A DNA stretch of 63,364 bases, the filler included, from Reclinomonas americana ATCC 50394 (taxonomy: Eukaryota): the NCBI GenBank assembly GCA_048213135.1. It is 16 parts of 16 records of this genome, joined end to end, with 100 filler letters (N's around TTAATTAATTAA, not from the genome) between each part and the next. Parts side by side here need not be neighbours in the genome. Positions count along the whole stretch, not along the records: positions 1 to 2,077 come from AFZH01017687.1; positions 2,178 to 5,244 come from AFZH01017688.1; positions 5,345 to 6,683 come from AFZH01017689.1; positions 6,784 to 8,348 come from AFZH01017691.1; positions 8,449 to 10,227 come from AFZH01017692.1; positions 10,328 to 11,619 come from AFZH01017693.1; positions 11,720 to 14,310 come from AFZH01017694.1; positions 14,411 to 24,296 come from AFZH01017695.1; 8 more parts are not named here. One strand, given 5' to 3'. Position 1 is the first letter of the stretch, and the number at the start of each line of letters is the position of its first letter. Positions 485-63,304 of this stretch are shown here, one piece after another. Under the pieces are notes generated by a model, which had not been told where the DNA came from, did no database searches, and was given only the letters and a program-made list of their open reading frames with translations. The position numbers were made by a program, and so were the translations under genes.

Positions 485-3400
485 AGTACTCTGAGCCGGA
501 TCCGCAGAGCGAACTGGAACGCAAGCGACGCGCCAATCAGCTGCGGGAGAGGGGCAATGCCGCCTTTCGCGCCAATGCCGTCGACGGTGCTTTCATCGAT
601 TGCTTGGTTTTGCTCAGCACAGCACGTCGCTTTTACTCATCATTATTCATGTGCGCAGAGGCGCTCGCTCTGTACGAGGAGGCCGAACACGAGTGGCCAC
701 ACTTTGCGTCGGTGTTCCTCAACAAGGCGCAGTGTTTCATGAAAAAGTCGCAGTACTCCGAGGCCATTACGGAGTTTACGCGATGCCTGGAGATCGAGCC
801 GCACAATGTCAAGGCCCTGTTGCGCCGCGGTGTGGCCAAGCACTCCCTCGGTCGCTTCGATGATGCCTTGGAGGGTGAGAGGATGGATGATTGTGCTGTG
901 CACTTTTGCTTGCCGCCGCCGACTCACTTCCCTTTTGTGGTCGCCAGATCTGCATGCGGCGCAAGCGTTGGAGCCGAAGAATTCGGCGGTGGCACAAGCG
1001 ATTGAGGCGTGCGAGGAGGACAAGTCGGAGACGAGTATCGAGCGGCACCTGTCGACCAGTTGCGTGTGCGGCAAGCACTGTAGCTTGACATGCATGTGTG
1101 CTGAACGACTGGCACCAGGGATCGATGCCGGTGTGCCGGAGCATGTGGACGAGGTGCACAGTGAGGACGATCTGTCGGTCGCCGCGCTGAATCGCCTGGC
1201 TCGTGATTTCGCCGCCGCCGCAACGCCAGAGGCGCTGCGTGTGCCTGGCACATTCCTGAAGGCGTCACTCGGCGAGCGTCAGAATTTGGTGTTCCTGCGT
1301 GTTGGCGGTCACTTGCCGGGCATTGCCAGTCGGATGGAGGTCGACCCGAAGTTTACCACCGATGTGCTGGCACTGGTGGCGCAGAATGGTGTGTGTGGCG
1401 AAGGAGAAAAGGGGGTGCCTTTGAAAAACAATGGTGTCAGAGTTACTCAAAGCGCCTGTGTTGCAGCCAAGAATGCGGCGTGGATGGCGGAGAATGGCGC
1501 GGTGGCTCAAGTGTGCTCGTTTGTGCTGCCGGCCGACGAGCCCGCGGCTCCGTTGCGCGCCACTGCGCTGCATTGTTTGGAGATCTGTGCCGAGCATGGT
1601 GCGTGCCACACACCCTCGCAAGAATTGTGGTGAGAGATTTTGACGTGAGATGCAGATGTCGCCTGTCGCGCGATCATGGAGCATCTGTCGCTCGACTTGC
1701 TGCTGAATTTGCTCAAGGAGAACTCGCCGCTGGATCTCATCACACAGGCCGCGGTGTTGAGCATTCTTGATCGCGCGTTTAAGATTGGTGGGTGGCCGAA
1801 GGGGGGCAAAGGGAAAGGGAAGAGGGATAAGAGGGGAAGGGAGAATGCGAGAGAAGGGAAAAAGTGATAAGGAAGGCAAGGAAGTGAAAGAGTGTGGTGT
1901 AGAGAGACATGAGAGGAGGAGAAGAATGGAGTCAGCCTCAGATGCGCGTGAAGTAACGCTTTGGAGGGCACGGGCAGGGTTTGATTGATTGACAGACATG
2001 GCGAAGCAGAGGAGCGAGAGGAGGCAATGGAAGGGGTGGAGTGAGCGACAGAAGTAGAAGAGGGTGGATGCAAGAAANNNNNNNNNNNNNNNNNNNNNNN
2101 NNNNNNNNNNNNNNNNNNNNNTTAATTAATTAANNNNNNNNNNNNNNNNNNNNNNNNNNNNNNNNNNNNNNNNNNNNTTTCTCCTCCGCCTTCTCTTCTC
2201 CTCAGCCCCTATTAGATTTCTCTTGTGCCTCTCCTCCTCCTCCTTCTTCTCTCTCTCTCTCTCTCTCTCCAGTCTGCCAAGTGGGTGGGTTGGCATACTT
2301 TTGTCTCTGCCCCCACTGTTGTCGCCGGGTGCGATTTGCTATTCATCGATGAATGTGAAGCAATTGGGCTGTGATCTATCCCTTTGCCAAGTTGTATTCG
2401 TCTAACCATTCTCTCTGTGTCGCAGGTTCTTGGCGCCGCGAGTTCCACTCCAGCGCCGTCTTGCACCTCACCAGCGCATTCATGCTTCGCGACAATCGAG
2501 CCACGCAAGAGATGGCCGCAGGTGCCTCCTCCTCTCCATCTTCTGTTTCTCTCTCACTCCCACTCACTCTCCTTACGACAGCCTTCTTGATGACCATGTC
2601 GCAAGACGAGTTCCTGCGCAAGCGCATGACAAATCTGCGAGTGTATCAGGCGCTGCTCGAGTTCCTGCGGCGGGAGGTGGGCGCCATGAGTACCGAGCAC
2701 GTGCCTACGTCGCTGCTGCTGGAGGCCACTCTGTCGGCGCTGGCCAATGTGTCGTTGGAACGTTGAGTGAGGGACTCACGCACGCTCCCCTTGTCTCCCC
2801 TCCCGACGCTCACACATCTCGTCTTCCTGCAGACGACGCGGTGGAGCAGTTCGCCAACGCCAACATGGTGCCGGTGGTCGGACGACTGCTGCCAGGGCGC
2901 GGCGAGGAGGGCGAGGAGGTGTTTGCGCCGCCGAGTCCGCGTGGTGGTCAGCAGAGTGCGAATGTGATTGTGCGACGCACTGTGTTGTTCCTCTCGCGGT
3001 GCACCTCGCACGGTGAGCGTTTGTTGCGGAAGTGGAGTGTCACACGGTGTGGTTGCGCTCATTGTCGTGTTCTGCAGAGCGCGTGGTCGCGGCGTTGACG
3101 GGCAGCGAACGGTGGGTGTTGGCGCGAGTGACGCCGTATTTGCGAGAGGTGCAGGACGAGATTGCCGAGTCTGCCGTGCGTATCTTGGCGGCGTGTGTGC
3201 AGCGAGGTGAGAATTTCGTTTACATGGAGGGTGTTCTTGAGTCGATCGCCTCATTGATTGCCACAGAGCCAACGCTGCTGGTGGCGTCGGGTTCGCTGGG
3301 TAATGTGATTGCACAACTCAGCTCGACTAATGTGCGCACTGCCGCCAATGCGGCGGCGTGCATTGGACGAGCGGCTGTCGAGCGTTGCGTGCAGATGTGG

Positions 3401-3721
3401 GTGCAAGGCGATTTCCCTTCCACGTGCCAGCTCACTTGTTGATTGCAGCCAACGTGTCGGTCGCCGTGCGACAGATGGGTGCCATCGACAAGCTGGTGGC
3501 CATGCTCCGCGACGGAGTCGATACGATCAAGAAGAAGGCCGCGTACGCGCTCGCTCGTCTCGCGCAAGATCGTACGTCGTCGCGCTCTATACGTCGCCTC
3601 ACGTGTTCGTGCGCACTCACGCTTTCGTCGCGCAGCCGAAAACGTGTCGGTCATTCGAGATCTGCACGGCATCGATCTGATGATGCAGTACAAGAACAGG
3701 CTGCTCGAGGAGCGCCGATAG
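485..3721 (+). CDS. TTC12: TPR + armadillo-repeat protein, TTC12-like (5' exon(s) outside window; spans gap 2078-2177)
   Basis: Spliced exons give TPRs (ANQLRERGNAAF, VFLNKAQCFMK, PHNVKALLRRG) followed by ARM repeats. The C-terminus AAYALARLAQDPENVSVIRDLHGIDLM resembles the TTC12 end (…LRKLHGLEIL). GT-AG introns are frame-consistent; stop at 3719-3721. Confidence 0.7.
2078..2177. other. Scaffold gap with artificial six-frame stop linker (first of 15)
   Basis: 44 N + TTAATTAATTAA + 44 N. The same linker starts at 5245, 6684, 8349, 10228, 11620, 14311, 24297, 28459, 37623, 41976, 44293, 50999, 54631 and 61310. Confidence 0.98.
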
Positions 3722-6659: not shown

Positions 6660-6837
6660 TGCAAAAAAAAACTTTTGATGGCCNNNNNNNNNNNNNNNNN
6701 NNNNNNNNNNNNNNNNNNNNNNNNNNNTTAATTAATTAANNNNNNNNNNNNNNNNNNNNNNNNNNNNNNNNNNNNNNNNNNNNTGAATGGCGGGAAAACT
6801 CACTTTCACAAGAATGTTTCTGTGTGAGACACGCAAC

Positions 6838-8296: not shown

Positions 8297-8348
<52 letters not shown>

Positions 8349-8467
8349 NNNNNNNNNNNNNNNNNNNNNNNNNNNNNNNNNNNNNNNNNNNNTTAATTAA
8401 TTAANNNNNNNNNNNNNNNNNNNNNNNNNNNNNNNNNNNNNNNNNNNNCCTTCCTCCTCTCTTCTCT

Positions 8468-8511
<44 letters not shown>

Positions 8512-10687: not shown

Positions 10688-11719
10688 GACACACGACGAG
10701 CGCTCAGCAAACAGCCAAAAAAACAAAAAAAATAGGGAGCAGAAACGAATCCGGAGAATACGCTCACGGGCGCCGAGAGAAACGGCGCAGAGTGGAGAGG
10801 AAGAAAACAAAAGCGCGGTCGGTTGAGGAGCAAAAGTTAAAAATGCAACACGAGAGAAGAAGAGCGGAGCCAATGAATGAATGTCGAGTCGTGACAGTGA
10901 CGCTACAAAACGGACTTTTCACACAGCCAGCGAGAGGCGGAGAGAGGAGGAGAGAAAGGCACACACACGCGCACACACACAGAGAGAGAGCAAGAGAGAA
11001 CACGGGGGAAAAAACAAACTCTTTTTTTAACCATCACGTGTCAAGCCAAGAATATCACTGCGACTTTCTCTCTCCTCCCAAGTCACACTGCTCTTCTGTG
11101 CGCGCCTCCCCGCGCGAGAAAACTACAGACAGCGGAGAAAAGAAGAAAGAGAAGCAGTGTGTGTGTGTGTGCGTCGTCGTGCGCGTAATGGCAAAGACAC
11201 AACTCACACACACACACAAAGACAGACACGCACACGCGCGCAAGTCATGCACGCGTGAGACAGGGAGACAGGAGAGACACACGGCGCGCATGGCACAGAG
11301 AGTGCAGATGGCACGAGTGACGACAGTGACGAGGAGGAGGAGGAGGAAAAAAACGAGGTCGGAGATGCGCGACCATGTGCACACGCAAACACAACCCCGC
11401 AAAACACCACACACACAAGAAGAACGCCAGAAGACAAATAGCTTTCACACACAAACACCCTATCCGCCGCACACCTCCGTCATCTGATCTCGAAAGCTTG
11501 TGTGAAAAAAAGTCAATGAAAGTTACCGCGGGCGTCGGTAAGCCGCCTTGACGATTGCGTAATTTCCGCTCAATCAAAATCCGTCCCGCCATTTTGCAAT
11601 GCAAACGGGAGAGTTGGTCNNNNNNNNNNNNNNNNNNNNNNNNNNNNNNNNNNNNNNNNNNNNTTAATTAATTAANNNNNNNNNNNNNNNNNNNNNNNNN
11701 NNNNNNNNNNNNNNNNNNN

Positions 11720-12152
11720 TGTAGATGTTGCCGTTGCAGTAGACGCACGCCACCAGCTTGGTGCCGTCGGTGCTGGAGGCCACACTGACCCAGTAGCGAT
11801 TCGTGTCGCGCGGCGTCCATGTCGCACCCGAGTCGGTGGAGGTGTAGATGCGGCCGAACTCGACGACGGCCACCAGCTTGGAGCCGTCGGCGTTGGAGGC
11901 CACCGACCACCAAATGCGCTTCGACTCGTGAGCGGTTGCGGCAGTCGGTGCCGCACATGTGGTCCCTCCACCTGGTGTTTAGCAGTCGTCGTCAGTCACG
12001 ATGAGGTTGCAGGGAAAGTGAATGCATGACCACCATCATGAGCATGCAAAAACGCAACGGACGCTGATGGACGAGTCGTGAGCGTGAACAAGCGCCGAAG
12101 CACACACCAGCGCCAGCACCAGTGCCACAAGCACGCTGGTCCAAGTTGTCAT
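11720..12152 (-). CDS. Secreted beta-propeller repeat protein, paralog B (3' part lost in gap)
   Basis: Signal peptide MTTWTSVLVALVLALVCASALVHA, intron 12058-11972, then repeats WWSVASNADGSKLVAVVEFGRIYTSTDSGATW. Near-identical to the paralog starting at 14991. Confidence 0.85.
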
Positions 12153-26470: not shown

Positions 26471-28401
26471 TCACCAGACGCGGCACTTGTGCTGCGGGTT
26501 CATGTTGGACCCGACGGGGCACTGGAAAGCCTCGGCGAAGGGTGTCGAGTTGGACAGCGGACCGTTCACACGATACTTGGCCGGCGAATGCGGATCCGTC
26601 AGCACCTGCAGGCGAGCGTACGCCGGCTGCGAGTGCACAGTGTAGCCATGTTAGCAACTGAGACGCAGCATGTTTTCTTTGAGGTGGCAAACGCACCGTG
26701 GCCTTGGTGCACCACACTTGAGCGTAGGAGACAAAGTACAGCTGGTCATTGGTAAGACCGGAGACGATGCTGGGTTCTGTGCGGGGAACAGTGAATTTAA
26801 GTACTGGGAACACAAAGAGCAGCACCAATGTACCAACCAGCGTTTTGGCCCGGCTGCAGCGTCTTGCGGTAGGCGGCAAAGCCGACGCCCACACCACCCA
26901 TGTCGGCAATATTTTCACTGACAAAAGACGCCGAGACATCAGTCACTGATTGCAAGTGGCATCCTCGGCAACAGCAGCAGAACGCAACCCCAGAGTCAGG
27001 TTTCCGTTGACGGCCAGCATGCTGCCACCAATGTCCACCTCGTACGACGAGTACAGGTTGCTCACACAGTTGGCGCGCTCGACAAATTTCTCCACCGCCA
27101 TCTCGTTCCACCATGGCGACAAGTGACCACTGCATATCGATGATGAGCTCAACAACAACAAGAAGGACCTGACGATCGGCAGTTGCGCAACGTGGCATTG
27201 TACTGGCGTCCCTGGTCGTCAAGGCCGTGACTGATCTCGTGACCCATCACAGCTCCCTGCAAACACACAAATGAGTGCAAGCACACACAAACACATGCCA
27301 CAGAAACCGCCGTTGCGTCACGAAACAATCTGCAACACACAAAGTGAGACGACCGGAGCTGACGTGCGAGAGGACTCGCGACCACACACAGCTCACGCAA
27401 CAGCTCCGTAGTTGATGGCGGCAGGGAATGTCTGATTGAAGAAAGGCTGCTGCAAGATGCCGGCAGGGAAGGCGATCTCATTGGCCTCGGGCTGCGGAAA
27501 GGAGTGTGAGACGTGACGTTACCATTATGTGGGACCAACAGACATACCATGTAGTACGCATTCACGGTCGGAGCGGTCATGTACCACTTGGTGGGATCCA
27601 CAGCCTTGCCAACCTGTCCCATCAATGAGAAACAAAGCAGTCACGTTAATGCACCGACGACAGCGCCCCACCGATTGAATCTCCTTTTGCGTCTCGTAGT
27701 CACGTGCGGCTTGCACACTGGCAAACAGCGAGTCGGGCCGGAGCTGCGGAATGAGCTCCGCGTACGATTCCCACTTGTCGGGGTCTGCAGGTGAACATGC
27801 GTAAGTGCACAGTGCACACGCACAAGCGGCAGCAACAGCAACGCGCAACATCCAATCTTGTTGCGAATGGCACGCAGTTTTCCGACGGCGCGAGTGCGCG
27901 TGTCGGCATCCATCCAGTCGAGACCCGGCAGCGAGTCCTCAAACGCCTTCTCGACGTCGGCAATCATGCGCTTGGCAATCGTCTTGCTCGCACCAGCAAA
28001 CATGCGCTGCACGTAGTAGCGACCAACGATGCTGCAAGTGCGACGGGTGAGCACTCTGAACCGATGCACTTGCACGGATTGCATGACGGTGTGTGCGCAA
28101 CTCTCCGAGGTACCCGTCGACCATGCCGACACACGTCTTCCATCTGCGACAAGACGCCACGATGAGCGCAGCACATCAAGGGGAGATGCCCCCCACCACG
28201 TAGTTACCGAGGACGCGGTGCCTGCTGGCCACTGATGATTGACTTCCAGCTAAAGTCCTCATCCTGGAAGGCCTGCGACAGCTGGTTCGAGTACGCGTTG
28301 ATCACACGCATGCGCAGGTACGCGCGAATGACCGTGCGAGGCGTGTGGGCGATCAGCAGGCCGAGATTCTCAAAGTAGGTCGGCGACTGCACCACCAGCA
28401 A
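26471..28401 (-). CDS. M13 family zinc metallopeptidase (neprilysin/ECE-like); 5' part in gap
   Basis: LDWMDADTR, KIG|YPD, VNAYY, EIAFPAGILQQPFF, NYGA|I|GAVMGHEISHGLDDQG, LTLG|ENIADMGG, QLYFVSYAQVWC, TDPHSPAKYRVNGPLSN and CPVGSNMNPQHKCRVW*. Confidence 0.96.
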
Positions 28402-28558: not shown

Positions 28559-31500
28559 TTGTGGAGGAGGCTCTGCTCGACTGACGCAGGCGAAGAGGAC
28601 TAAACAACGAAATTCGAACTGTAACGGTCAAATGGATCGCTGCCAGCTCGATGCTGTTTTTACTTGCCAGCGGATCGCGTGGAGGCTTGTGACGGTGTCG
28701 CAGGCGAGGTCGCAGTTGAAGAGGCCGACGAGGAGGAGGAGGAACTGGGGCTGGACGAGGCCGGCGGACGCAGGGTTGGAACGGCGCCGGGCGACTGCGG
28801 CGGGCACGAAGGGGCTATGCGGTGACGCGCCGCGGATGCAACTGCGGGCGATTCTCGCACTTGCGAAACCGGGACCGCAGAAGCAGTAACTGTTGCCGCC
28901 GTCGTCGCCGTTGGTGGAGGGGTGACCAATGTCTCGCCCCGATCACCCGAATACCGGAGTACGGACGCGGGCAGCTGGCTGGCGGGCGTGCGACCGTAGG
29001 CATGTGGCGCGTCGCGGTATTCTGCTGCCGGCTGCGTCGCCAAAGTTGCTGTTGAGCTCAGTGACTTGGCGGCGAACAGCGATGGTGGCACCGGCGCGCG
29101 GTAGGTATCCGTCGGATCCAACAGCGGCTGCACGTCCACGTACTTGTGAATCTGCTGCTCGACCGGCTGCGGCGGCGGTGAACTCCTCATCGACGTCGCA
29201 GTGGATCCGGTCGATGCCGATGCGGATGGCACTGGCGTTGGCGTGGGCACCGAGGCGACTCCGCCACTCACGGCGGCGCGAGCCAGAGTGTACTGCCGAG
29301 AGAGACTCTGCGGCTCGGCGAGCAGCGGAGTCGGCTGATCTTCAGTTGAGGGTGGCTTGGTGACTGGTGGAGCTGCCTGCACCGGCTCCGGCATTCTCCG
29401 TCGGAGATCTGCTGAATGAGGACTTGACTGCGGTGCAGAGCGCAAGTGTGCTTCTCCCCGTCCACCATTGCCATCGCCGTCATCGTCACCGACGCCATCA
29501 TCGCCGCCGTCGTCGTCATCGTCATCGTCGAGAAGTACTTCGTCGTCGTCATCCCCGTCCTCCTCTTCCTCCTCGTAGTCTTCTTCGCTGTCGTGTTGTG
29601 CCGCGGGATACCGATTCCAAGCATGGTCGTCTCCGTTGCCGTCACTATGGCTGCCGCTGTCGCTGTCGCCGTGTGCCACACTCGTAAAGGCCGACGCACG
29701 ATGAATATTTGCATCCACGGGCCGCTGCGCCAAGAGGCCCGCACCGTTCCGAGAGCCAGGGGCTGCGGTTGGAACGTGCACGCGCGGTGGAGAAACGACC
29801 CAACCGGAGTCGCCGTCAACGGGTTCCATGGCCGCCGGGAACGCAATCATGTCGGACGTGACGCGCACACCATGCGGAAGGCCCATGCCGATGCGATCTT
29901 CAATCGTCACCGGGCCGAGCACATCCAATGCACCCTCCACGTACAGGTACTCGGCATCGTCGACATCCTCCTGCAAGCCGGCGCGTACATGAATATGGCG
30001 CCAGGGGAGGCGACGGGAAGGGTGACGAGACGCAACATCACTGTCTTCCAACTCGCTCTCCGGAATCGTGCCCTTCTGGTACTGCCTTCGCGGCTGTGGC
30101 CTAGCAGCGCGTCCCTGTTGTGCGAGTGCGATGCGTCAGTAAAGTTCCGCTTCACAGACGGCCGAGAAAAAATACGCACTCCCTGTGATGAGTTTCGCGA
30201 GCCCACAGTCTCGACAAAGTATCCCGCGCGAGTCGGCGAAGGCGCATTGGCTCCTGCGGTGTAGACCGTGAGCAGAGGGCCACAGGGTGAGGAGGGGAGC
30301 TATCATGAGTACGAAACTGCGTCCGACCGACGACTGCAAGCGATTCGCGGCAGCGGCGGACGGTCGCTGCAGACAAGACCGGGAATGAGTCAGCAGACGC
30401 AGAACGGATAGTGTGCGTGTGTCGGTGTGTCGGTGTTTTCGTGCACGCACCAAGTGCGCATCAGCAAGCTCCGAGTCAATCGACTCGCTCTTCACCACGC
30501 TGTCCGAGTCCTCGGCGTCGGCGCTGTAAGACGGCGAGTACAAACCACCACTCTGGTCGACACCTCTGCCACCATCGCCAATGTCGGCGACACCATCATG
30601 CACATCCACGTACGGCGGAGCACGCACGCGCACTGGCGATACTATCGAGGCAAAATCTGTAAGCGCAGTGCGGTACTCGCGCTGATGTACACGCATAAAA
30701 AACCGCACCGGCTGACGTGTGTCGCATGAGGTTCCGCTCCGACAAGACATCTGCCGACCATGAGTCCTCTTGCTCGGCATCCTCCAGTTGCATGTCGTCG
30801 GCGCCAGCGCGCTCGTCACTGCAGAAGAGAGAGGGGATGTGAAACGTGTGTCGCTGCGAGTAAAACGATTAGGAGACGCCGACGCAACAGGTCATAGTCG
30901 GGGGGCGGCGAGTCGGAATCAGCTGCGTATCGCGAGGCCGCCGCAGCTGCTGCCGCGTGCTGCTCGTCCACACAAGAAAACACAGTTCGTACGTTGGAAA
31001 AATCAAACTCGATTTCGCAAACAGAGACATGCGTATGATACACACCTGCTGTAGCTGCTGCTGATTGTGCCACACACTTGCCTCCTGCAGCAAGTAGTGG
31101 ATCCTCACCCGCTCAGCACACCCAACACACACGACGCCACAGATCAGCTACGACAAACTGACAAACCTGTCCTTCTTGTTCCGCTTCATCACTCCCTCCC
31201 TCGCCGTCACGCACCAGATACTCCACTTCGTCACCGTCGGAGGAGGGCGGTGAGACAGCTGCCGGCTTACGTGGTGGTGCCTCATGTTCCTTGTACCGAT
31301 GAGCTGCTTCTGACTGTCCATGGCCACCATCGGCGCCAGCTGCTCCCGGCTCATTCCACGCCTGACGAACGGGGTACATGGGCCTGTGCACGCAAACAAC
31401 AACGCGACGAATCAGTACGGTTGGAAGTATCACGTCGAGAGCAGTGCCACGCAACCCAAAGTGCGTTGCCGGCGGCGGTTGATGTGGTTGTGGCTGCGAC

Positions 31501-38896: not shown

Positions 38897-41800
38897 TTAC
38901 CATTCATCACTATCGTCGCCGCTCATTGCACCAGCGTCTTCCGAGTCCAACTCGCGGTCCAACGCCAGGCGGAACGGCAGTTTGTCTGTGCACAAGGTCA
39001 TGTCAGTCACTGCCGGTTGTCTTCACGACCACCACCACCACCACAGAAGCTCACCAAGTTTGCCACACGCCCGCTGCAGCGCGTCAATTGCACCTGCTTG
39101 CCAGAACGGTGACGACTCTTCGTAGTATCTTTCCAAAATGTCGCTGTCCGACAACACCGCGCTCAGGAATTCACACAACACATGAGTGCTGCAAACGCAG
39201 AGGGTGGTGGTGCGTGAGTGATAATCAGGCGTGTCGTCGGGGGTGTGTGGAAGCGGCGACTGCGAAACTTGAGTGCGTGACAAACGAGTGTGCGGAACTT
39301 GACGTCCTTGTCGCCGGAGCGCAGACTTCTCTCGACCAGATCGTCAATGCTGGAGACCGCCGTGGCAAGAGTGACACCAAGGCCTCTTGCGTTCTTGGAT
39401 GCCCGCACAAACATGTCCCACAGATGATTCGAACCAAACAGACGCTTCGCCTTGAACCCTATTGACAGCACCGTGGCCACCGCAGTGCACAAGTCACCGC
39501 GCACCAAGACAGTGATGGCCGGCGTAATGGAATCATCGCCAAGCAATTTCTGGCGGCACACATGTCGATTAGCACTCCACACATCATCATCAACGACAAC
39601 AACAGGACGGCGCACGTCGACTGCCACGCACCAAATCGCGAGCTTGACCAGTTTGCACAAAGTGTCTGGCAATCGCCTTGACCACAGCCACCAACGGAGC
39701 CTCGAATCCAACCGCAGCAGCAACTGCAAGACACAAAACAACCCGTCAATACGGCGTATTGACACACGTAGTATAAAGCGCAAAGACCAACGCACCGGGC
39801 TTGGGCTGAGTAGGGGCGTCTCGCGTTCCGAGCTTGAACGAGAAAGAAAACTATGCAAAAAGACACGCAACGTGTCAGTGAACAAGAGAGGCTATCTTCT
39901 CGGTGTCACGCACACACAAAAACACACCTGCAACAGCAGTGCCAGTACGCCAAACAAATCATCGAGTCCGGCCGGATTCGCCATCAGTGCTGTTGGATGG
40001 TACGTGGTCTCGACGAATCCCGGTGTCGTCAACGCGATTTGCAACATGGTCGACAAGAAGCGCTGGTTCAGGCAGTACTGAATAAACAGCAGCAGCCCGA
40101 GGCGGTTCAACTGCGCCTCGGTAAGCTTGCGCACATCTGCAATACACGGATTGAGAGGCATGATTATCAATAGCTGACACGTGTATGTCTGAATGGATCA
40201 GCGCAACTGGACAAGGAGTAAAAGTCGCGGAAGGCAGCGTCGGCGTCGGGTGATCGCACTTGACTGAGGATGCGGAGCGGATCACCGGAAACGTCATACG
40301 CTTCCTGCACAGCACTCCAGTCTTTCAGCAAAACTAAACGAACTGGGAAAAAGGACGAGCAAGGATTCCGCACCCGCACACGATCCGTCAGAATTGCATG
40401 GATCAGCTTCACCGCCTGCAGCGCCAGAGTCGCCGTTGGGGCCACCACATAGTAGCCGTGAGCGTCTCGCACGCCTGTTGCAGTGTGAAGTGAGTCTCGA
40501 TATCATTGCGGAGAGAGCACAGCAGGTGCACAACACACCTACGACGCCGTGCAGCTCGCGCTCCGCACACTCGGCCTTCAGATCACGCAAACTCGAGGCC
40601 AGTTCCTCCACTAGGTCGCCAGCATTGATGTGCGTCACCGACAGTCGCTGTGGTGGTGTGGAGTTCTCCACGCGATTCATGGGCGACGGTCTGCATTCAC
40701 GATAAGTACACCATCGATCGATCGATTGACATGCGCGCGTGTGCGTGTGCGCTGACGCAACGGTACTTCCAGCGAGTCATGTGAGGCAGGACTGCTAATC
40801 GGAGGTGTGTCCGCGTCGCGATCAGGCGGCACTGTCACATCAATAGGCGGTGCACCCGCCTCCACCGCCGACGGAGGGGGCGCCTGTGACGCAACGCAGT
40901 CAGACCAGGTAAAGGACAACACAGCGACACGTTCGTGAACATCGTACCGGATTCACAATGGCAGAAAGAGAACGCGCTCGTCGCGTGGCCTGTTTCTCCG
41001 CCTCGAAGTGCGTCGTGGTGCTCTCGGCCGTCGGTGCCGCCTGCACCAACTCCCAGGTCGAGTACCGGAAGCCAACAGTAAGCTGCAAGCATCAACCCCG
41101 CAAGGCAGTCAGCGGCAGCAGAGCACACACATACAAACAAAGAGAGTGGATTGTTCCACCGCTGCACAGCGCACGAACCCCGCCAGCCAGCACCACTCGC
41201 CGCATTTCGTTATCCAGCCGGGTCAATTCCTCCTGGCAGCGAGCCGCAGTGTCAGCATTGCCCTCCGCCGAGGCCTCTGCCATCTTCCTCTCCAGTGTGG
41301 CGATTCGGTCTCGCAGCCGTTGCGAACGGGGTCCAGCCCCAATAGAATTCTCCGCGCACAGCGAAAAGGTCTTGTCCTTGCCGTATCTCAGCAAGATGCC
41401 CGACAAGGAAATTCGATCACCGGGGCGCAGTGGCGAATCACTGTCACACAAGGGACATGGTGAGAGCGGAGAACTTGGCGACAAAAGAGACGCTCATAGC
41501 CGCCTCACCCGTCCTCGGTCTTCAGCAGGTCCTCCAAATCTTGCGGCGTAAACACAGAGTGCAACTCGCCACTCTCGCCCTCGTCGTCATCGTCCGTCGG
41601 GCCAGAGCCCACCACCGCATCCTCCCCGGCAGAGCTGGTGACGGTGCTTGCTGCAGCAGCAGCAGGTGGCGGGGCAGAGGCCGCAGCAGTGCCGCGTGGC
41701 GCAGCGGGGGTGACAGTCGTGGTCTCTCCAGTGACGACCACAGGTGATGCGGCGGTGGATGGCGGAGGCGGAGGAGCAGTTACATCTGCATCCATTGCGA

Positions 41801-44754: not shown

Positions 44755-44794
<40 letters not shown>

Positions 44795-45970: not shown

Positions 45971-46004
<34 letters not shown>

Positions 46005-46976: not shown

Positions 46977-49900
46977 TTACCAGGCGATGTAGGCCAGTCG
47001 ACCCTGCGGCCAGCGCCGCACCCACCATTTGCGAACTTCGTCAGCCGCGAAAATGGCGCACGCAAAGGCCACTGGAAAGAACCAGTATTCGGCCTTGATG
47101 GCGCGCGTGTTGAAGAGACTGCATTCGGACGACTCGGTGGTGAGCGAAGCAGGCACAGGTGCTGCAAGAGAAGCAGGTGATCTCTCACGAAACTCGTGGA
47201 AGACAGGCACATACACCACAATGACGGCAAATGCAAACGCCATTCCCTGGTACGTGATAATGGTCAAGTTGCGCGCCGGGCCCCACAGTGGGTTGTGCGA
47301 GAAGAACGAGACGCGGCGAGTGCGGGTGGCAAGCAGATTGCCCATCTGAATAACGACCAAGCACACAAAGTAGCACGTCTGAGCTCGGAACAAGTGCTCA
47401 TTGAGGTCGGTCTTGCTCAAGCCGTGATAGCCGTCGGCGTACTTGTCGTAAGCGAGGAACAAGTCGCTCGGGTACAGATTGGCCTCGTGTGCCATGTAGA
47501 AGAAGTACTGTGTGCAGGAATGGAGATAATAATGCGGGTTGAGAGCGAAGATGATGGAGAGAGCGTGGGCATCCGTTATGAACCATAAAGTGGCACGCCG
47601 TCGATTCGAGTACACCAAGGAAGAAGTACGCGTGAACAATTCTGCAGTGGAGGATAAGTGAGGGCTTCTGTCATCCTCCCTTGGTCAACAAGGCTGGAGA
47701 ATGAGTTACGCAACAGCTTCCAGTTGATGAGACGGTCCTTGACGCGCGAGCGAGGCTTGCGCAGCATCACATCGGACTCGGCATTCTCGGCGATCAGTGG
47801 GAAGCAGGTGACGAGATCGGTGACGACGGCGAGGAAGACCATGTAGAATGGCGAGAGTGGGAGCGGTACACCGAGAAGCACGTAGACGAGCACCGGGACG
47901 AACTCGGAGAAGGAGCCGGCTGTGATGCACATACGGAGTAAGCATTCGCTTGAGCGGGGATGAAGGTCAACCCAGCAATCGTCCCCACCTGGCAGCAGAT
48001 ACAGGCACACTTTCTTCAAGTTGTCATGCACCAAACGCCCGAGACGAATACCGTCGATAATTGAGCTAAAGTTGTTGGTCAGCAGAATCATGTCGGCCGC
48101 CTCTCGAGCCACATCGGAACCAGCTCCCATGGCAATGCCCAGATCACTCTGCTTGAGCGCCGGACTGTCGTTCACTCCATCGCCCGTCACGGCCACCTGA
48201 CACACATTTTAGTCACATAAGAGACGTATGCATGGACAACGGACGAAAGACGGCACCATCTTGTCGCGCTTCTGGAACTGCTTGACAATCAGCAGCTTGT
48301 GCTCGGGTGTCGTGCGGGCAAAAACAATCTCCTTGCGCGAGGTGACATACTCCCACGCGGCGTCGTCGAAGCCATCAATGTTGGTGCCCTTGATGACCAC
48401 CGCATCGTCGTCGTTGGCGTACAACGATGCCGCGGGGAGCACCTCGATATCCGTGCGCTCGGCGCGGTTGTTCTGCAGCAACAGCGGCAGCGTGGTGGAG
48501 TCGACCTCGTGCACCACACTCGCCGCCGAGATGATGCCGACTTGGCGGGCAATAGACACGGCCGTGGACGGATGATCGCCAGTCACCATGGCGACACGAA
48601 TACCGGCGCGACGCATGGCCGCCACCGCGTCCGGTACTTCCGCTCGCGGCGGATCGATGATCGCCACAAGCCCCAAGAAGGTCATGTCCTCGAGACGCAG
48701 CCTGCCGTCGGCCGACACGTCATCCTCGCCGAACCGCTCAAAGGACTCGCGAGTCCACTGCAGTGGATTGAGCTCCAGACGACAAATGCCAATGACACGC
48801 ATGCCTTCGGCACCGAGGTCATCCTGGCATTGCGCAATGGCATTGCGCTGGTCATCGCTCATAAACGTCACCTCGCCCGCCTGACCCGTCACCATGCTGG
48901 TGCACCGATGCAGCAGTCCCTCCGGGGCGCCCTTAAGAAGCACCACCAGGCGCTCTTCGTCACGGCCACTCTCGGGCGCCGGAGGATACGCCACCACCGA
49001 ACACATCCACTTGTTGCGCGAGTTGAACGGCACCTCGCCAATCACCTCGTGTGTGGTGCGGAGCTGCTGAACGCTGACAGGCAGACGCTCCTGTCCAAAC
49101 ATCAGCAGCGCGCAGTCCGTCGAGTTGCCCATCAACTTCTGCTCGGACAGCGGCAGATGCGCTGTGGTGGCGTCAACAATGGCCTGGTTGCAGAGGACCG
49201 AGGACGTGACAAGTTCCAAAAAGGAGCGGTCGTTGGAGACAAGCGCTTGCACCCACGACACGGCGTCGTCGGTCGCGACACCGTCGACCTGCTGCACGTA
49301 CGACCGCTGGCCAATCACGAGCTGCGCCACCGACATGCGATTCTGCGTCAGCGTGCCGGTCTTGTCGGAGGCGAGCACCTCGACTGAGCCGAGTGTCTCC
49401 ACCGTCACGAGGTTCTTGACGAGCACGCGCGCCTGCAACATACGGCGTGCGATAGCCACCATGGTAAGCTTGACGCACACCGGCATGCCTGCGTGCAATG
49501 GGGTATCCGTGTGAGAGACACAATCACACTCCCGAACTCTATTAATGTCCTCACTCTTTTCAACCATGCACACACCTGAGGGAAGCACTCCGACCTCCGT
49601 GCCAATGACCGTGGTGATGATACCCGAAACGGTGATGAACTCCGGGAACGACAGATGCAGCCACGCGCCCCAAATCACGAGCAGCACCGCGCCCATGGAG
49701 ATGGCGAGAATGGCAATGAAGCGGACGAACCAGTTGATTTCCTGTTGCAGTGGCGTGGCGGCCGGACTTGCAGAGGCCGTTAGTGTGGCAATCTTGCCGG
49801 CAACGGTCAAGCCGCCAGTGCGGAAGACGATGCCTGCAAGGAGAGTGAGGAATAGTATCATAAAAGGAGAAGAGACACGACTCTCATCTTTCTCCATTTC

Positions 49901-54730: not shown

Positions 54731-57700
54731 TGAGAAACAGATTGCGAGGGAAAAGCAGTCGTCTGCCTACCTTGTTGCCGCCGATGCGATACAGGGTACC
54801 GCCTGCGGTCATGGCGTTGCAGGTCTCGAAGCGAGCGTGGAAGGGGACTGTGTTGTTCAGAGGCATACGCAGTGAGCAAGTCTGGAGCATGATTCAATCG
54901 CTGGCCGTGCGACTCACATGTGGCATTGTTGGTCGGCACCTGCGTCTGTGTGAATGTCTCCGTGGCTGCGCGTGAGGGACAAGTGATCAGTTGACTGCGC
55001 ACGCTGCTGACATCAACACGTGCGCAGCGGGACGTACCGCAATCAAACACGAGTCGCTCGCCGAGAACTTGGTTGGTGGTCTTGCTGACGCCGCCAAAGA
55101 TCCATACTTGGTTGGCATACTCAAACGCGGCCGCCTGGATGCGCGCGTACGGCGTCGACGAGGTCACAGTGGACCACGTGTTGGAGCCTGCAGTATCGAG
55201 AATGAGCGTATGCGCGGGAGAGTGAGAGAGACGGAGACTACCCCTCCCGCTTCATACCGATTGAGTATTTCAGCAAATCCGTCAGCACAGTGCCACTGCT
55301 GGAGACACCGCCCAACACGTAGATGGAGGTGGTGGAGGAGCAGGCAAACACAGTGGCGTCGACTCGTGCCGACGGCGCGTTGGCCAGGCGTGTGGCGGTG
55401 ACTGTTCCGGCGCCCGATGCGTTGAATGACCACAGCTCGTTGAGTGGTGCCTCACCCGAACTGAGTCCACCAAAAATGTAAATGAGCGTGCCCACCACCA
55501 CGGTTGAGTGCCGGTACCGCGCCGACACAGACGTGCTGAAGGTGGTAGTTGACCACGTGCTGGTTCCTGCGGCAAGTAATGTGAGCAACAGCGACTCTTC
55601 TGCTCGTCAACAGACCAGCAATAGCACGAACCAAAACTGAAGCGCCACACGCTGCTCAGCACGCCAAAGCTCGTCGACCCAGGGCAATGGTACGGGGGTG
55701 TGTTCTGCACGCAGTCGGTGGTCGTCCCGCGACCGCCAAAGAGGAACAACTCGTCGCGCGACGGATTCATCACCAGAGTGTGGCCGGTACGCGGTCCGGG
55801 AGTAGAGGCGCTGGACGAGCATCCGGTGGGTGCCAGCACTCGCCACGTCTCTGCAAGTGGAGCAACACAACATGAGAGGACGCCTCCTGTCATGCCGTGA
55901 AGGGGTGAGGGGAGACGAAACGGCTGACGGTATTGTACGCCCACAGCCGAGGGTCGGCTGCGAACTCTTGCGTCGAATCACCGCCAAACAGCACAAGATC
56001 ATTGCTGCTGCTGCGGAGGGCGAGACCACACATGGCGCGTGTGAGCGTCGGTGATGTCCACACGTCAGTGCCAGCTGTGATGGGATAGCACGTGCAATAT
56101 GAGGACAAAGAACAACTTTTTGGTGGTGAATGCAGCAACGCAACAGAACGGGCCGTAGTAGGAACCGTACGCGCTGACTGAGGCACCAATGGCAGAGCGC
56201 ACACGAATGCGGTAGGCGTACAGGTCTGCGCACAGTACATCGGTGAGCGAGTTTGTCTTGTAAGCGAGTACCGTTGACGTGAGGAGACGCAACACTGCGC
56301 CGGGATCTTGACTGGAATCGGAGTGCCGTTCGGTGGCGCACTAATGCCAGTCTGCTGATTGATGTACACGGAGCTGCATGCACCGAGAAAAAAATCAGCC
56401 TTGGGGAGAACTATTATGTGCTTCGAGTATCCATCAAACGCACACAGCAGTGAGAGCAGTGCTGTCGGCACAGCTCAGCTCAATGTCCAATCGCGTCAGC
56501 AGCGATACGTTGAGACCGATCGGTGCCAGTACGTTGAATTCCATCGTCGGCTGGTCGTAGAATGCCGTGGAGCCCACATGTCGACTAAAGTATGCCGGTG
56601 GTACGTGCGACACAAACGTGACCGAGGCGCTGTCAAGGTTCATTGGCGCCGGCACTGCAATGTGTGCACACTGGTGAGCAACAAAATTGGAGGCGCAACT
56701 GGTAACACGGAGTCCGTGCACGCACATGTAATCAACGCTGCGACAGAGGAAAATGCAGAGGATGAGAATGTAAGCGAGAGAGCAGCAAGCGCAAGGAACG
56801 CAAAAAAACTCACCATTAACGGTGAAAGATGCCGTTGTGCCAAACACATCGGAGATGCTGCTGGAGACCTGTGTGATGTCGTTGGACTTGAGGCGCACCT
56901 CCACCGTGTGCCCTGCAAAGTGCGCAACACAAGCGTTGGTCTCACAAAGGTGGCGATGAGTGCGATCGTCGCAGCTCACCAGCTCCAGAATACGGATAGC
57001 TGAGTGCCAGCGTGTAGTTGACCGTGTTGACGGTGCCGGCCGGCGAGCATGTCGGCGTGACTGATCCCAACAGTGTGCTGTTACTGCCCTGCTTGAGGTA
57101 AATGTCGGCGCCAATGTATCCGCTGCTGTTGTCAGGCGCACTGCACGTGTAGGTGACGGTGTTGCCGAGGCTGACGACCCACGGTGTGGTCGTGAGGGTG
57201 ACGCTGGTGATGGCGGGATCTGCGTGCGATCCCCCCCACGTAAGGTGCGACGCGAAGAAAGGCACACTCTCCAGTTGACACGCAACTCAAGTACTGGAAG
57301 TTGCTGCTCGAGTCGAGATATCGGAAAGACACTGTGTCTTGCAAGCGCAGTGTGTAGTTTGTGCCGGACACGGCCGACGTGCTGGACGTCAGTGTCGATA
57401 CGGTGACGGGGGTCACCGACGGCCTGTACGCATGACCAAAGTTAGGCTCGCAATGCAGCGATCGGTGACTTCTCGACACAGAGAGAGACGCAGCTGGAAG
57501 GTGGACGAAGGGTTGAACGTGATGGCCGGAGAGCACATGGCATTGCATGCCGGTGTGACGGCCACCAGCTGAATGGAGCCGGGCTTGTTGCCGACAGTGA
57601 ACTGTGCTCAAATATCACGCGATACACATACAGTGAGATTCTCGTGTTGCAAAAGGCTGACCTGCAAGTGATTCACGCACCGACGACGTGAACGGGAAAT

Positions 57701-58980
57701 AGTTCCACACAGGGGTCGGCACCGGGGTGGTGTACGCGACTGTGACATCACGGTTTCAGCAAGCCATCTACAAGCACACGAATAAACAGGCAAGAAACGC
57801 AACGAGTCGGCGTCGACGACGTGCACACGCTGTTGAGCACTGGGCGGAAACAAAAAAAGGCATGAGCAGTGTGACACGACCAGCTGGCCTACGACGACCC
57901 CACATACACGCAACTGCTGTCGAGTTGCGATGCCAGCGTGGAGGCCAGTTGCGAGGGATCCACCGGCGGCACCGACACGTACAGCGGCACACCCGTGATG
58001 GGGTCGGGGGAAGCGTACGGAATCATCTCTTGGTTCACAAACGTGTTCAGCGCAAACGCATCCACTTGCGACTCGATGCCGACCGTGGCCACGAAAATGT
58101 TGCTGTTCTTGAGAGCAGTGGCCGCGGCGACAGCGCGGTCCTTCAAGGTGACGTACTCGGGGACTGCGTGTGTGTGTGCGCAAGGAGCATGTTGAGGAAT
58201 CGAAATTGCAAAGCAAGAATTCGTATACACGAAACAGTCGGTCGGGTTTGTGTTGACAATGTACGAGAAGCCGCTGGGGTCGTCGCACACGTTGCGCACA
58301 TCGGCAAAGAACGCCTCACAGCGGTTAAAGTTGCTGGAGACAAAGATGAGGAACTTGCTGGCACTGGGGCGCACCGAGGGATCCGTGTCGAAAAAGTTCT
58401 GCCCACGCACAACGTGAGAAGAGGAGTGGCAAAGGAAAAGAAAAAAGAGAGACGCACCTTGGCCCACTCGAGCGCCAAGTACGCCGCCGTGTTGGCACTG
58501 CCAATGCGGTCGGTGACAGCGGTATCCAACGCCGGCTTCACCACATTGGCGAGGAACGTGGCGGGATTGTCGGTGGGGAAACTGGCCGTGTTTGGTCGCA
58601 GCGAGAAGCCCGTCGTCGAGCGCGTATCGACAGCCGCACTGAACGGCTGCAGCACCCAGTTCGGATCGTAGCTGCCAGTGGGATACGAAACATCGTCGCT
58701 GGGTGCAGACCCTGTACATCGGAAAGGCAGTGAGTGTGACAACAAAAGGCACACTAACTGTGCACAGGCAGTAGTAACATTGTCGAATGGACAGGTGCTG
58801 CTGCGTAAAGTCCAACGAGCTGGCAAAGTTGTAGATCCAGTTGGGCACCACGTCGGGCACACCAGACAAGTTCTCCGATCCTGTACATGTGTGAACACGG
58901 CGAGGGGGAGTGAGAACACAATCACTCACTCACTGCACACTACTCTTTGTCTCTCTCTCTCTCTCTCTCTCTCTCATCTC

Positions 58981-60095: not shown

Positions 60096-60662
60096 TCACA
60101 CGGCAATGGGCGTATTCGGAATGCGAGTTCCCGGTGGCGCTGTCTCCATAAATGCCGGCATGCTATGATGCGTGCGGTGATCGATGCGCGCTGGTTGAAT
60201 GAACGGCCTGTGCGTGTGTGTGAAAGAGAGTGAGTGTGAGTGCGAGTGGGCAAGATATCGGATCATCATGAGTGACGCAACTCCAATCGTGGTGCGTCGA
60301 CCACCAATGTGATCAGCAGAGTGGCGCCCACAAGGAACACAGAGCCGACCACCCAGTGCACTGAACCGAAGAAGTCGCGATTGAACTGTGTGTGTACGAG
60401 TGTGTTAGAGAGTGAGAGGCGTTTCATAGGGCTCTCGCAGACAATAATCGAGCCCTCTCCTTTTCTCGCATGTGTGTGACAAGAAGAGAGAGAGAGAGAG
60501 AGAGAGAGTGTGTGTGTGTGTGTGTGAGGATAACCTTACCTGAGTAAACGAGGAGGCCGGCACCAGCGAGCGCATCAGTGTGTAAAACACAAAGCCCGTC
60601 CATAATATCAGCACACACGCAATCGACACAAACACCGCCTTCCATCGCGTATGAAACCCCAT
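60096..60662 (-). CDS. Small two-TM hypothetical membrane protein
   Basis: MGFHTRWKAVFVSIACVLILWTGFVFYTL…FTQ|FNRDFFGSVHWVVGSVFLVGATLLITLVV…LE|PFIQ…PIAV*. The third exon is inferred from the GTTGCG donor at 60281. Confidence 0.6.
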
Positions 60663-60796: not shown

Positions 60797-63304
60797 ATGG
60801 CCGACGAGGGAAGGTCTGTGGTGCCACTCTCCACTCTGTGTCTCTCTTGCTTGCTCGCTTGCTTGTTGTCTGCGTCTCTCGTTTCCGCGTTGTTTGCGTT
60901 GTTGTCGTGCGTGACATGTCCACTCACACTTTGACACACAACACACAGACGACGATCAAGTCGTCGCTCAGCAGCAGCAGGCAGTGAGCCTCCACCACCA
61001 CCACCACCAGCAGCAGCATCCACACGTCGCGGTCGCGGTGCATCGCGGAAACGTAAGTGCACGTGTGAGTCACACACACTCTGTCTCTCTCTGCTCGTCA
61101 CACTCACGCGCACGCGCTGGCAACACAGAGGACGATGATGTTGAGATGCACGCAGCGCCGGTAGAGAGCGTAGAGGCGCCGGCAATGGAGAGCAGCAGCG
61201 CGGGTGAGATTTCATTGTCGATTGAGGAGACCAACAAGATGCGCGCCAAGCTCGGCCTCAAGCCGCTGCGTGTGGATCCTGCGCCTTCTGCTGCTGCTGC
61301 TGCTGCTCCNNNNNNNNNNNNNNNNNNNNNNNNNNNNNNNNNNNNNNNNNNNNTTAATTAATTAANNNNNNNNNNNNNNNNNNNNNNNNNNNNNNNNNNN
61401 NNNNNNNNNTCTCTCTCTCTCTCTCCTTGCACCTTCACTCCCTGTCTCCCTCCCTTTCACCTTCACTCGCTTCCTTCCCCTCTCTGCATTCTTCTCTTTG
61501 TGCCTCACTCTCTCCCCTCCCTCACACACTTTCTCTTTCTATCCCTCCCTCCCTCCCTCTCTGCATCTGACTCCCTGTCTGTCACCCAGAAACTCGTCGG
61601 CGACGACGACGACGACGACATCAAGAACTGGTTGCAGAAGAGCCGACGCATGGAGGTCTGTGGACTGAGCAATGCGCGCTTGCATGCTTGCCGTGCCGAT
61701 GCTCATGTGTGATGCACAAAAAACAAAAAAACAGGAGGAGCGCAAGCAGGCAGAGGAGGCGCGCAGAAAGCAAAAGAAGAAGCACGATGAGGAGGACGAG
61801 GATGATGACGACGATGACGACGAGGAAGGAGGAGGGTCGCGAGGCGGACGGGGTCTGTCGGGTTTGAAGGTCGCGCACAAGATGGATACGGTGGCGGGTG
61901 GCGACGAGGTCATTCTCACGCTCCGCGACTCGTCCATTATCGACGGCGAGAAGTTGAATGAGAGTTGCGAAATCATCCCTTGCTGCATCCGTGGTCGCGG
62001 ACGTGCGTCGCTGACTCTGCGTGCGCGCCACAGATGAGGACGAGCTGGAGAATCCGCTGTTGGTCGAAGCCGAAAAGGCACAATGGAAGAAGAAGCAGAA
62101 GGATCTGGTCGCTCGCGGCGGTTACAATGCCGTGGAGGAGTACGAGCAGGGTCCGTCGCGCGCCCTTCTCTCGCAGTACGACGATCAGAATCGGGAGTTT
62201 ACACGTGAGGTGTGTTTCATTTCGTGCACCTTTCTTGGGGCGTCCCTCACGCACGGTTCGTACAGTCGTTCCGGCTCGGCGGAGAAGAGACGTCGGAGGA
62301 GGCAAAGCAGAAGCGCCTGGCGGCCGTTCGCGCCAAGTTGCTCGGCTCCAAGGCCATGTCTTCGGCGCCCACTGGTCCGTCGCGAGATGTGTTGGAGGCG
62401 GTGAGTTTTCCGCTACTCCTTCCACCTCCCTGCACGCGTGCGTCTCTCGTACTCATCTTAAATGCAACCGTGTTTCGCAGACTGGTGGTGAGGTTGTTGT
62501 GCAGGAGTCCGCCGACGGAAAGCGTGCAGTCAAGCTGAAGTACTCGTTGGAGGACTCGCGTTGCGTGAAAGAATTCGCTCATTTTTCATGTGACCGCCCG
62601 CTTCCGTGCGCACTCACCTGCGTGTCTCCCGTACAGAACCGACCATGGCACGCGATTACTACACGGTGGAGGAAATGTCACAGTTCAAGAAGAAGCGTGT
62701 GAAGGTTCGAGTTGCAACTGTACCGCGGACACATTTTTCAGTTGGTTTCTCATTGCGGGTGAGAGAGCAGAAGGTGAAGAAGAAGAAGAAGGCGAGCAGC
62801 ACGCTGGAGGAGTTGGACGATATGCTGCCGGAGACCACTGCTGCGGATCATGGCAGTCGCAAGAGTCGTGGTGGGCACGTGAGCAAGCAGCGTGCCGCTG
62901 AGGACGCACTGAACGAGGAGCGGCAAGCGGCATATGCGTTTGCTGTACGCAAGAAGGAGGCGGCTGCGCGTGAGAAGCTGCGTGTCGATGACGACGACGA
63001 CTCGCCGCAGCTGTCGCGTCGCTTGCAGAATCTTGGTGCAGGTGGACCCAAGGGCGACGAGCGTCTTGCCATGCTCGGTGAGTGGCGCTTTGTCATGGTT
63101 TGTTGTTGGCATTCACTCACGTACATTTGCCATGCACATGCAGTGTCGGCGTCTGCACCGGCGGAGAGCATGGATCAAGATGGCGATGGAGACGACGGCG
63201 GACTGGTGTTGGACCCCACCGACGAGTTTGCTCGCTCGCTTCCGACGTTGGCCGGCCTGCAGGATAAGAAGAAGGAGGAGGACGAAGTCGCTGCGCAGAA
63301 CCAG
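60797..63304 (+). CDS. SART1: U4/U6.U5 tri-snRNP protein SART1/Snu66 (continues beyond window)
   Basis: HIND motif GEISLSIEETNKMRAKLGLKPL, plus LSGLKVAH, VILTLRDSSII, EDELEN, LLSQYDD, DYYTVEEMSQFKKK and GLVLDPTDEFARSL. Confidence 0.95.

Follow-up and report, generated by a model that had tools for sequence, protein, structure and literature searches.

A discrete GTTGCGT class of donor sites in short introns of Reclinomonas americana and its possible recognition in a shifted U1 register

Do some short introns of Reclinomonas americana ATCC 50394 begin with the word GTTGCGT, where are such introns cut, and how might their donor be recognized? The question is raised by a window of 63,364 bases of nuclear eukaryotic DNA, joined from 16 records of assembly GCA_048213135.1, with a G+C content of 56% (0.76 at the third codon positions of conserved exons, GC3) and short introns in abundance throughout. 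The original prediction was that, besides ordinary donors of the GTGCGT type, about 20 introns use GTTGCG, the local consensus with an extra base at +3. All 20 listed positions read GTTGCG, with the G at the coordinate given. Of five related donors that were also listed, three were exact (GTTGAGT at 2762 on the plus strand, GTTTCG at 27326 and 39268 on the minus strand), and two whose positions were approximate were off by one base, their G lying at 50665 and 47193. The observation of a GTTGCG(T) donor class is confirmed. The class is real and major, being the top donor hexamer in a gene finder and the top junction at six of seven sites tested by homology.

The position of the cut was assessed by protein homology. 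We built profiles from 60, 50 and 55 homologues of three conserved genes, which code for a P-type ATPase, MCM8 and an M13 peptidase (top homologue identity, 43%, 52% and 48%, respectively). For each gap between profile-matching exons, every in-frame, stop-free GT-or-GC...AG junction was considered and the joined peptide scored. At six of the seven testable sites, the junction that takes the G of GTTGCG as +1 was gap-free and scored best. The runner-up at those six sites was a GC donor 3 nucleotides (nt) downstream, which scored 4.7 to 7.8 bits lower and forced a one-residue insertion in every case, including inside the motifs KIG|YPD and LG|ENIAD of the M13 peptidase and AHF|IDKF of MCM8. The original prediction had fixed junctions at these three motifs, and the profile alignments reproduced them. 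As placed by homology, the cut is shown to fall before the G of GTTGCG.

The six sites lie on the minus strand. In the ATPase gene, the donor GTTGCGTA of the 73-nt intron at 47642..47714, preceded by exon base T, was the best of 28 in-frame junctions (68.4 versus 63.5 bits for GC) and left the alignment gap-free across NWKL|IVHAY. The 65-nt MCM8 intron at 21059..21123 (donor GTTGCGTT) scored 65.5 versus 60.8 bits for GC, and 43.0 versus 37.1 bits in a local, gap-free comparison across AHF|IDKF. In the M13 gene, the GTTGCG and GC readings scored 84.2 versus 78.2 bits (locally 41.7 versus 35.7) for the 70-nt intron at 28032..28101 (donor GTTGCGCA) and 88.3 versus 80.8 bits (57.7 versus 48.8) for the 62-nt intron at 27130..27191, which has the same donor. 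The 65-nt intron at 27785..27849 (donor GTTGCGCG) interrupts KIG|YPD, and the GC reading, which adds a residue within the motif, obtained 91.5 versus 99.3 bits (28.1 versus 38.4 locally). The 71-nt intron at 26918..26988 (donor GTTGCGTT) interrupts LG|ENIAD and scored 76.3 versus 68.6 bits (40.3 versus 31.2).

An in-frame ATPase intron of 75 nt at 47119..47193 on the minus strand has a donor of the related GTTTCG form, GTTTCGTG. Its removal yielded one contiguous profile match of 126.0 bits, versus two matches of 62.9 and 42.1 bits when it was read through. Thus, six GTTGCG introns and one GTTTCG intron in three conserved genes have GT...AG ends, and their removal restores frame and homology. 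The same test cleanly placed ordinary introns with donors at 50356 (GTGAGC), 49904 (GTGAGA) and 48256 (GTGCCG). Four MCM8 junctions were excluded as ambiguous: those between profile positions 285-336 and 343-365, between 343-365 and 368-417, between 563-616 and 632-682 (GTTTCG, 98.3 bits, versus GTTCGA, 97.7 bits), and between 681-734 and 727-793, where both parts lie within one open reading frame (ORF). Three ATPase introns on the minus strand, at 49489-49575, 47920-47988 and the above 47119-47193, are stop-free and in frame, and ORF scans read through them. For the first two, the intron and read-through models scored 126.4 versus 98.6 bits and 158.4 versus 138.6 bits, respectively.

How frequent the class is was determined across the whole window. 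On both strands together GTTGCG occurs 85 times, compared with 64.4 +/- 7.0 in 100 dinucleotide-preserving shuffles, none of which reached 85. This bulk excess is modest, and the case therefore rests on the position of the copies. We used a Viterbi gene finder with codon log-odds trained on the profile-aligned segments only, which required GT...AG ends and included a length prior. When run without any donor model, it called 176 introns in the 11 genes that scored 25 or more. Among their donor hexamers GTTGCG led with 18 of the 176, whereas its share of all sense-strand GT sites would give 2.45 (p = 8e-11), and the runners-up were GTGCGT (10) and GTGAGT (5). A self-training step then added a first-order donor model and an acceptor matrix. 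The resulting 100 introns started with GTTGCG in 21 cases, GTGCGT in 11, GTGAGT in 6, GTGTGT in 5 and GTTTCG in 4, and their base at +3 was G in 53, T in 37, A in 7 and C in 3. The self-trained gene finder reproduced 19 of 22 homology-placed introns. Among the listed sites, 13 of 20 were picked without the donor model and 15 of 20 by the final model, no site on the list was refuted, and the final model added six more, at 30036, 40207, 40761, 56293, 57803 and 57914.

If donor positions varied independently, 2.5 GTTGCG donors would be expected among 75 short introns; we observed 19 (p = 4e-12). The donor positions do not vary independently. In the homology-placed set, the class accounts for 7 of 27 donors. 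Altogether, roughly one intron in every four or five of the window belongs to the class N|GTTGCGT.

The anatomy of the donors was measured in the same 75 short introns, which include 35 with GTG and 32 with GTT. GTG donors mostly follow an exon-final G (26 of 35) and have A (15) or C (13) at +4, G at +5 (26) and T (16) or G (11) at +6. In GTT donors, the commonest bases are G at +4 (22), C at +5 (25), G at +6 (24) and T at +7 (21), and only 5 have G at +5. The GTGCGT-type consensus is therefore displaced by one base, as had been proposed: the G found at +5 in 26 of 35 GTG donors stands at +6 in 24 of 32 GTT donors, and T follows at +7 in 21. Of the 19 GTTGCG donors, 15 have T at +7. The displaced position is also more restricted, with 25 C and 2 A at +5 of the shifted class versus 15 A and 13 C at +4 of the ordinary class (p = 3e-4). 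The ordinary class can be written G|GTG(A/C)G(T/G), and GTTTCGT and GTTGAGT are minor forms of the second. As seven-letter words, GGTGCGT and GTTGCGT differ in the second letter only, and each is cut before its only GT.

The two classes differ sharply in the last exon base. The claim that most GTTGCG donors follow a base other than G held for the homology-placed donors, in which G at -1 occurs in 1 of 9 GTTNCG donors versus 17 of 18 ordinary ones (p = 3.5e-5), and for the predicted ones, with 1 of 23 versus 38 of 52 other donors (p = 1.6e-8). This pattern was not built in, since the donor model has no means of linking -1 with +3. Separately, three homology-placed donors on the minus strand have T at +3 outside the shifted word (19474-19547, GTTCCT; 47508-47583, GTTCAT; 26777-26837, GTTGGT), and two of the three keep the G at -1. 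Predicted GTTCGT and GTTCGA donors, in which G is at +5 as in the normal register, all follow an exon-end G.

The remaining intron signals are common to both classes. Ordinary introns measure 68.2 +/- 9.9 nt and GTTNCG introns 69.0 +/- 5.0 nt; the acceptor is CAG in 50 of 52 and 23 of 23, respectively; and a branch-like CT[CGA]A[CT] motif is present in 38 of 52 (median 19 nt from the 3' end) and 17 of 23 (17 nt). Both classes are U2-type GT-AG introns of 55-80 nt, with a CAG acceptor, a CTSAY branch-like motif and the same 3' signals.

How could one spliceosome read both words? The explanation that we favor, to which we give about an even chance, is that N|GTTGCGT is a discrete second class of U2-type introns read by U1 in a register shifted by +1. 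U1 small nuclear RNA (snRNA) would bind GGTGCGT and GTTGCGT at the same place. In the second class, the G at +1 of the intron would fill the slot of the last exon G, and a U would face the C of U1 whose usual partner is +1. In the later steps, the cut would be made with U6, U5 and the catalytic core at the only GU, one base upstream of the position set by the U1 register. The pattern at -1, seen in both the homology-placed and the predicted donors, indirectly suggests that G+1 stands in for the exon G in the U1 helix.

We modeled the pairing with ViennaRNA (nearest-neighbour energies). The 5' end of standard U1 gave -5.8 and -10.2 kcal/mol with ordinary donors. Its pairing with GUUGCGU, at -1.1 to -2.7 kcal/mol in any register, weighs against the shifted reading, as does its preference for GUUGAGU (-3.5 kcal/mol) over GUUGCGU, the reverse of the donor counts. 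Because C far exceeds A at +5 and standard U1 pairs so weakly, a plain shift of standard U1 is not sufficient. More speculatively, the U1 of this lineage might resemble the one reported for Mastigamoeba and carry a G opposite +4, which corresponds to +5 in the shifted class; this would explain the requirement for C there. A hypothetical U1 of the ACGUAC type gave -5.0 kcal/mol with GUUGCGU and -0.4 with GUUGAGU, and -11.7 and -7.0 with ordinary donors. The model thereby matches the observation that A is accepted in the ordinary class but missing from the shifted one; the shifted pairing reached -4.8 to -5.0 kcal/mol versus -4.0 for a bulged pairing.

Other observations count against the favored explanation as well. 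The base at -1 of the 19 GTTGCG donors is A in 4, C in 5, G in 1 and T in 9, with no preference for A, which might be what a shifted helix would predict, and the near-absence of G at -1 is predicted by neither register. GTTGCG is not avoided in exons (6 versus 5.8 expected, a comparison of low power), so that the hexamer alone is insufficient to make a donor. One of the seven homology-testable sites, 27401, also admits a GC-AG reading. The evidence base is one 63-kb window, and all junctions were placed by protein homology or by a home-made gene finder, which misplaced some ordinary donors (e.g., at ATPase position 49554, where the profile prefers 49575).

The best surviving alternative, which we nevertheless regard as unlikely, is a dedicated U1-like snRNA fully complementary to GUUGCGU that pairs in a normal register of its own, so that two U1 specificities would serve one U2-type machinery. 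It is favored by the sharper conservation of the class relative to the ordinary one, with seven near-fixed positions including T at +7, by the nearly obligatory C at +5 where ordinary donors take A and C about equally at +4, and by the poor pairing of standard U1 with GUUGCGU. Lineage-specific or multiple U1 5' ends are also reported from Entamoeba, Mastigamoeba and Physarum (bioRxiv 10.1101/2022.06.08.495308). Against this, full complementarity alone does not explain the avoidance of an exon-end G, and a single U1 with one changed base, acting in two registers, is a simpler account of the same data. Nor did the window contain an snRNA of any kind in an Rfam scan, which gave no match at the gathering score and found neither U1 nor U6. 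A relaxed scan (E up to 1) returned nine weak matches, all to microRNA (miRNA) or small nucleolar RNA models on low-complexity or N-flanked DNA. The weak miRNA matches at 8299-8511 and 15048-15359 occur on both strands, far under the gathering scores, and are most likely due to chance.

The original proposal left open whether the register is shifted or bulged. In a bulged-U register, G+1 and U+2 would be paired, one U of +2/+3 would bulge out and pairing would resume at G+4. Experiments in human cells have demonstrated such a bulge at +3 or +2 (PMC4856993). It would likewise put G+6 and U+7 opposite their usual U1 bases, and in the model it lies within 1 kcal/mol of the shifted structure. However, a bulge leaves the second C of U1 free for the exon G, so that G would be expected at -1. 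The near-absence of that G disfavors the bulged register, which we consider quite improbable. The original interpretation is partly supported: its shifted part fared better than its bulged part, and a shift of an unmodified U1 is not sufficient.

Moving the junction instead, so that the exon ends in GTT and a GC-AG intron starts 3 nt later at GCGT, leaves the reading frame unchanged, and frame alone is therefore no discriminator. This reading was preferred by a single-intron model at the seventh homology-testable site, 27401 on the minus strand of the M13 gene, where one 142-nt intron favored GC over GTTGCG (98.3 versus 88.7 bits). A microexon model does at least as well there. In it, a putative 3-nt exon, ATT at 27327-27329, separates a 72-nt intron at 27330..27401 (donor GTTGCGTG) from a 70-nt one at 27257..27326 (donor GTTTCGTG), both of them ambiguous. 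This model scored 77.1 bits, against 73.0 for one 142-nt GC-AG intron and 66.0 for a single GTTGCG intron. It was also the model selected by the gene finder, and its two sub-introns are of normal length. At the six other sites, the GC-AG reading scores lower and forces an insertion, twice within strongly conserved motifs. It would also require every one of these exons to end in GTT, whatever the codon phase (4, 10 and 5 GTTGCG introns in phases 0, 1 and 2). We rejected it and rate it as very unlikely. As an observation of its own, the 3' ends of the two sub-introns within 27257-27401 carry an almost identical 19-mer, as if the 3' part of an intron had been duplicated.

A recently spread family of mobile introns (introners) with a common GTTGCGT end is about equally improbable. 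The M13 gene has a bacterial protein as its nearest named relative and holds 5 to 6 introns of the class among 11, which could hint at recent gain. However, the interiors of GTTGCG introns resemble one another no more than ordinary introns do, with mean best local alignment scores of 7.44 for 171 GTTGCG pairs, 7.21 for 595 GTG pairs and 7.37 for 665 cross pairs, and no common 3' module was found apart from the usual branch and acceptor signals. There is as little chance that the junctions were mis-called and that GTTGCG merely lies near the true donors. The home-made gene finder does err by multiples of 3 nt at some donors, and the tests covered 17 of the 20 listed sites. Nevertheless, three unrelated conserved genes agree at one-residue resolution, the enrichment is present without a donor model, and the strong link to the -1 base is one that the model cannot encode. 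Finally, U12-type introns also form a second, sharply conserved donor class beside the main one, but their defining motifs, an (A/G)TATCCTT donor and a TCCTTRAY branch site, are absent from the 75 short introns, and the GTTGCG class has the same 3' signals as the main class. We rejected these three readings as well.

We compared the class with known donor systems. The mammalian precedent invoked in the original prediction is real: shifted-register sites are described in PMC4856993, which cites Roca and Krainer 2009. As here, a U follows the GU, the consensus is displaced by one base and the cut stays at GU; in those sites every U1 pair moves by one position. Such sites are rare in human, where all proven non-canonical registers together are put at 3119 of 201,541 sites (1.5%), whereas here one such word is the commonest donor, with about 20-25% of introns. 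In addition, C is near-obligatory at +5 here, which standard U1 does not explain. The human bulge +2/+3 register (68 sites predicted, 54 curated; Tan et al. 2016, PMC4856993) resembles the present class in its extra U after GU, with a bulge restoring the downstream pairs. That register predicts a retained exon-end G, which the GTTGCG class lacks.

Two classes of 5' splice sites that match mainly on the exon side or the intron side of /GU are also distinguished as "left-handed" and "right-handed" sites, governed by LUC7 proteins, in Kenny et al. 2025 (PMC11842720). Likewise, ordinary donors here need G at -1 and have a loose intron side, while GTTGCGT donors have a strict intron side and no G at -1. 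The LUC7 classes are reported to use a single register and to merge gradually, whereas here the intron-side class is displaced by one base and forms a discrete word. Co-evolution of U1 5' ends with donors is described in bioRxiv 10.1101/2022.06.08.495308 for Entamoeba (AACAAAC with GUUUGUU) and Mastigamoeba (ACGUAC with GUGCGC). In those lineages, U1 has changed at the base that faces a U at +3 or a C at +4 of the donor, and a U1 of the ACGUAC type would fit the C at +5 here. Each is reported to have one donor consensus in the normal register, whereas here two registers would coexist.

Among the matches listed by a full-text search of open PMC and bioRxiv, which were primers, aptamers and the like, there was no report of GTTGCG or GUUGCG as a donor class. 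A metagenome scan with an MCM8 exon returned at least 80 loci, six of which were examined, and no close relative. The nearest two have 6 and 7 mapped introns, which are longer, and none of the 13 starts with GTTGCG. They belong to other organisms, and the lack of GTTGCG there is of little informative value.

Most of the other listed sites are known from the gene finder. Predicted GTTGCG introns found with and without the donor model are located at 3384..3448 (plus strand, 65 nt, donor GTTGCGTG), 17971..18037 (plus, 67 nt, GTTGCGTA), 24836..24894 (plus, 59 nt, GTTGCGTG), 30819..30888 (minus, 70 nt, GTTGCGTC), 56075..56144 (minus, 70 nt, GTTGCGTT) and 57220..57286 (minus, 67 nt, GTTGCGTG). Two predicted introns on the plus strand belong to the SART-1 gene. 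The gene finder predicted the one at 61964..62033 (70 nt, donor GTTGCGAA), before which the Pfam SART-1 profile stops at position 113 and after which it restarts at 113, a resolution of a few residues; the one at 62560..62636 (77 nt, GTTGCGTG) was found without the donor model too.

All six predicted introns that were new to the list lie on the minus strand. Those at 29971..30036 (66 nt, donor GTTGCGTC) and 56226..56293 (68 nt, GTTGCGTC) were also found without the donor model. Those at 57740..57803 (64 nt, GTTGCGTT) and 57840..57914 (75 nt, GTTGCGTG) came from the trained model only, as did the one at 40691..40761 (71 nt, GTTGCGTC), in a gene that scored 10. The intron at 40137..40207 (71 nt, GTTGCGCT) is likewise in a low-scoring gene (10). 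The gene finder also predicted introns with minor or related donors at 2762..2832 (plus, 71 nt, GTTGAGTG, the shifted form of GTGAGT), 58164..58235 (minus, 72 nt, GTTTCGTG) and 55851..55921 (minus, 71 nt, GTTTCGTC).

Three listed GTTGCG words, all on the minus strand, are candidate donors. For the word at 6832..6837, the expected 3' end falls inside the N masks at 6684-6783. Coding signal is weak on both sides of 31450..31455, which has a CAG 72 nt downstream, and weak around 60276..60281, with a CAG 74 nt downstream. Paired masks of 44 N with 12 bases between them occur at 15 places from 2078 to 61409 and break several gene models, e.g., near 6700, 11650, 14350 and 28500.

Two listed sites lie in tandem paralogues of the sortilin/Vps10 type on the minus strand, at about 11700-12200 and 12800-15000, the larger of which has a lamin-tail domain. 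The paralogues have in common a signal-peptide exon and a first intron with donor GTTGCGTTTTT. In the larger, the gene finder predicted this intron at 14809..14888 (80 nt, donor GTTGCGTT), where it joins the signal-peptide exon to the frame with a Sortilin-Vps10 match. The paralogous first intron at 11972..12058 (about 87 nt, donor GTTGCGTT), with an N mask downstream, was missed by the gene finder; it is supported by its alignment with the former, in which the indels lie inside the intron only.

Pfam matches in the window indicated a TPR gene, a nucleoside transporter, DAD1, the two sortilin-like genes, MCM8, CGI-121, the M13 peptidase, a methyltransferase, the P-type ATPase, a PGK-like gene, a Kelch gene and SART-1. 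For the M13 gene (26400-28420, minus strand), the only named relative among ten proteins looked up was from a Myxococcales metagenome bin. It has 5 to 6 GTTGCG introns among at least 11, compared with 1 of 8 verified introns in each of the MCM8 and ATPase genes, and its intron load may reflect intron gain after late acquisition. The region 32000-46000 shows a strong positive AT skew and a poor coding score, and the gene finder gave weak models only. It contains a myosin TH1 match at 42027-42695 (minus strand) and many sense-like copies of GTTGCG on the minus strand, and it may contain a long, poorly conserved gene.

A bolder reading, to which we give somewhat less than an even chance, is that two modes of 5' splice-site recognition operate in parallel within a single U2-type spliceosome. 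Around a quarter of the introns would be recognized through an out-of-register U1 or a second U1-like RNA, and throughout the genome it would be the catalytic core, rather than the U1 helix, that decides where the cut falls. In practical terms, predictors with position-independent donor matrices will mis-call the class, possibly choosing GC donors or reading through in-frame introns, and a donor model with two classes would be required to annotate this genome. How the cut site is fixed after U1 departs is usually studied with a few odd human sites and engineered U1s. If the shifted register is true, R. americana would offer hundreds or thousands of natural test cases for cut-site choice in which the U1-type signal has moved by one base. 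It would reveal whether a minor alteration of U1 is enough to give access to a second register, and it would contribute a discrete example to the exon-side and intron-side donor classes now emerging. If the two-mode reading is true, the recognition of splice sites would have been uncoupled from their choice naturally and on a large scale, a changed U1 5' end being the enabling step.

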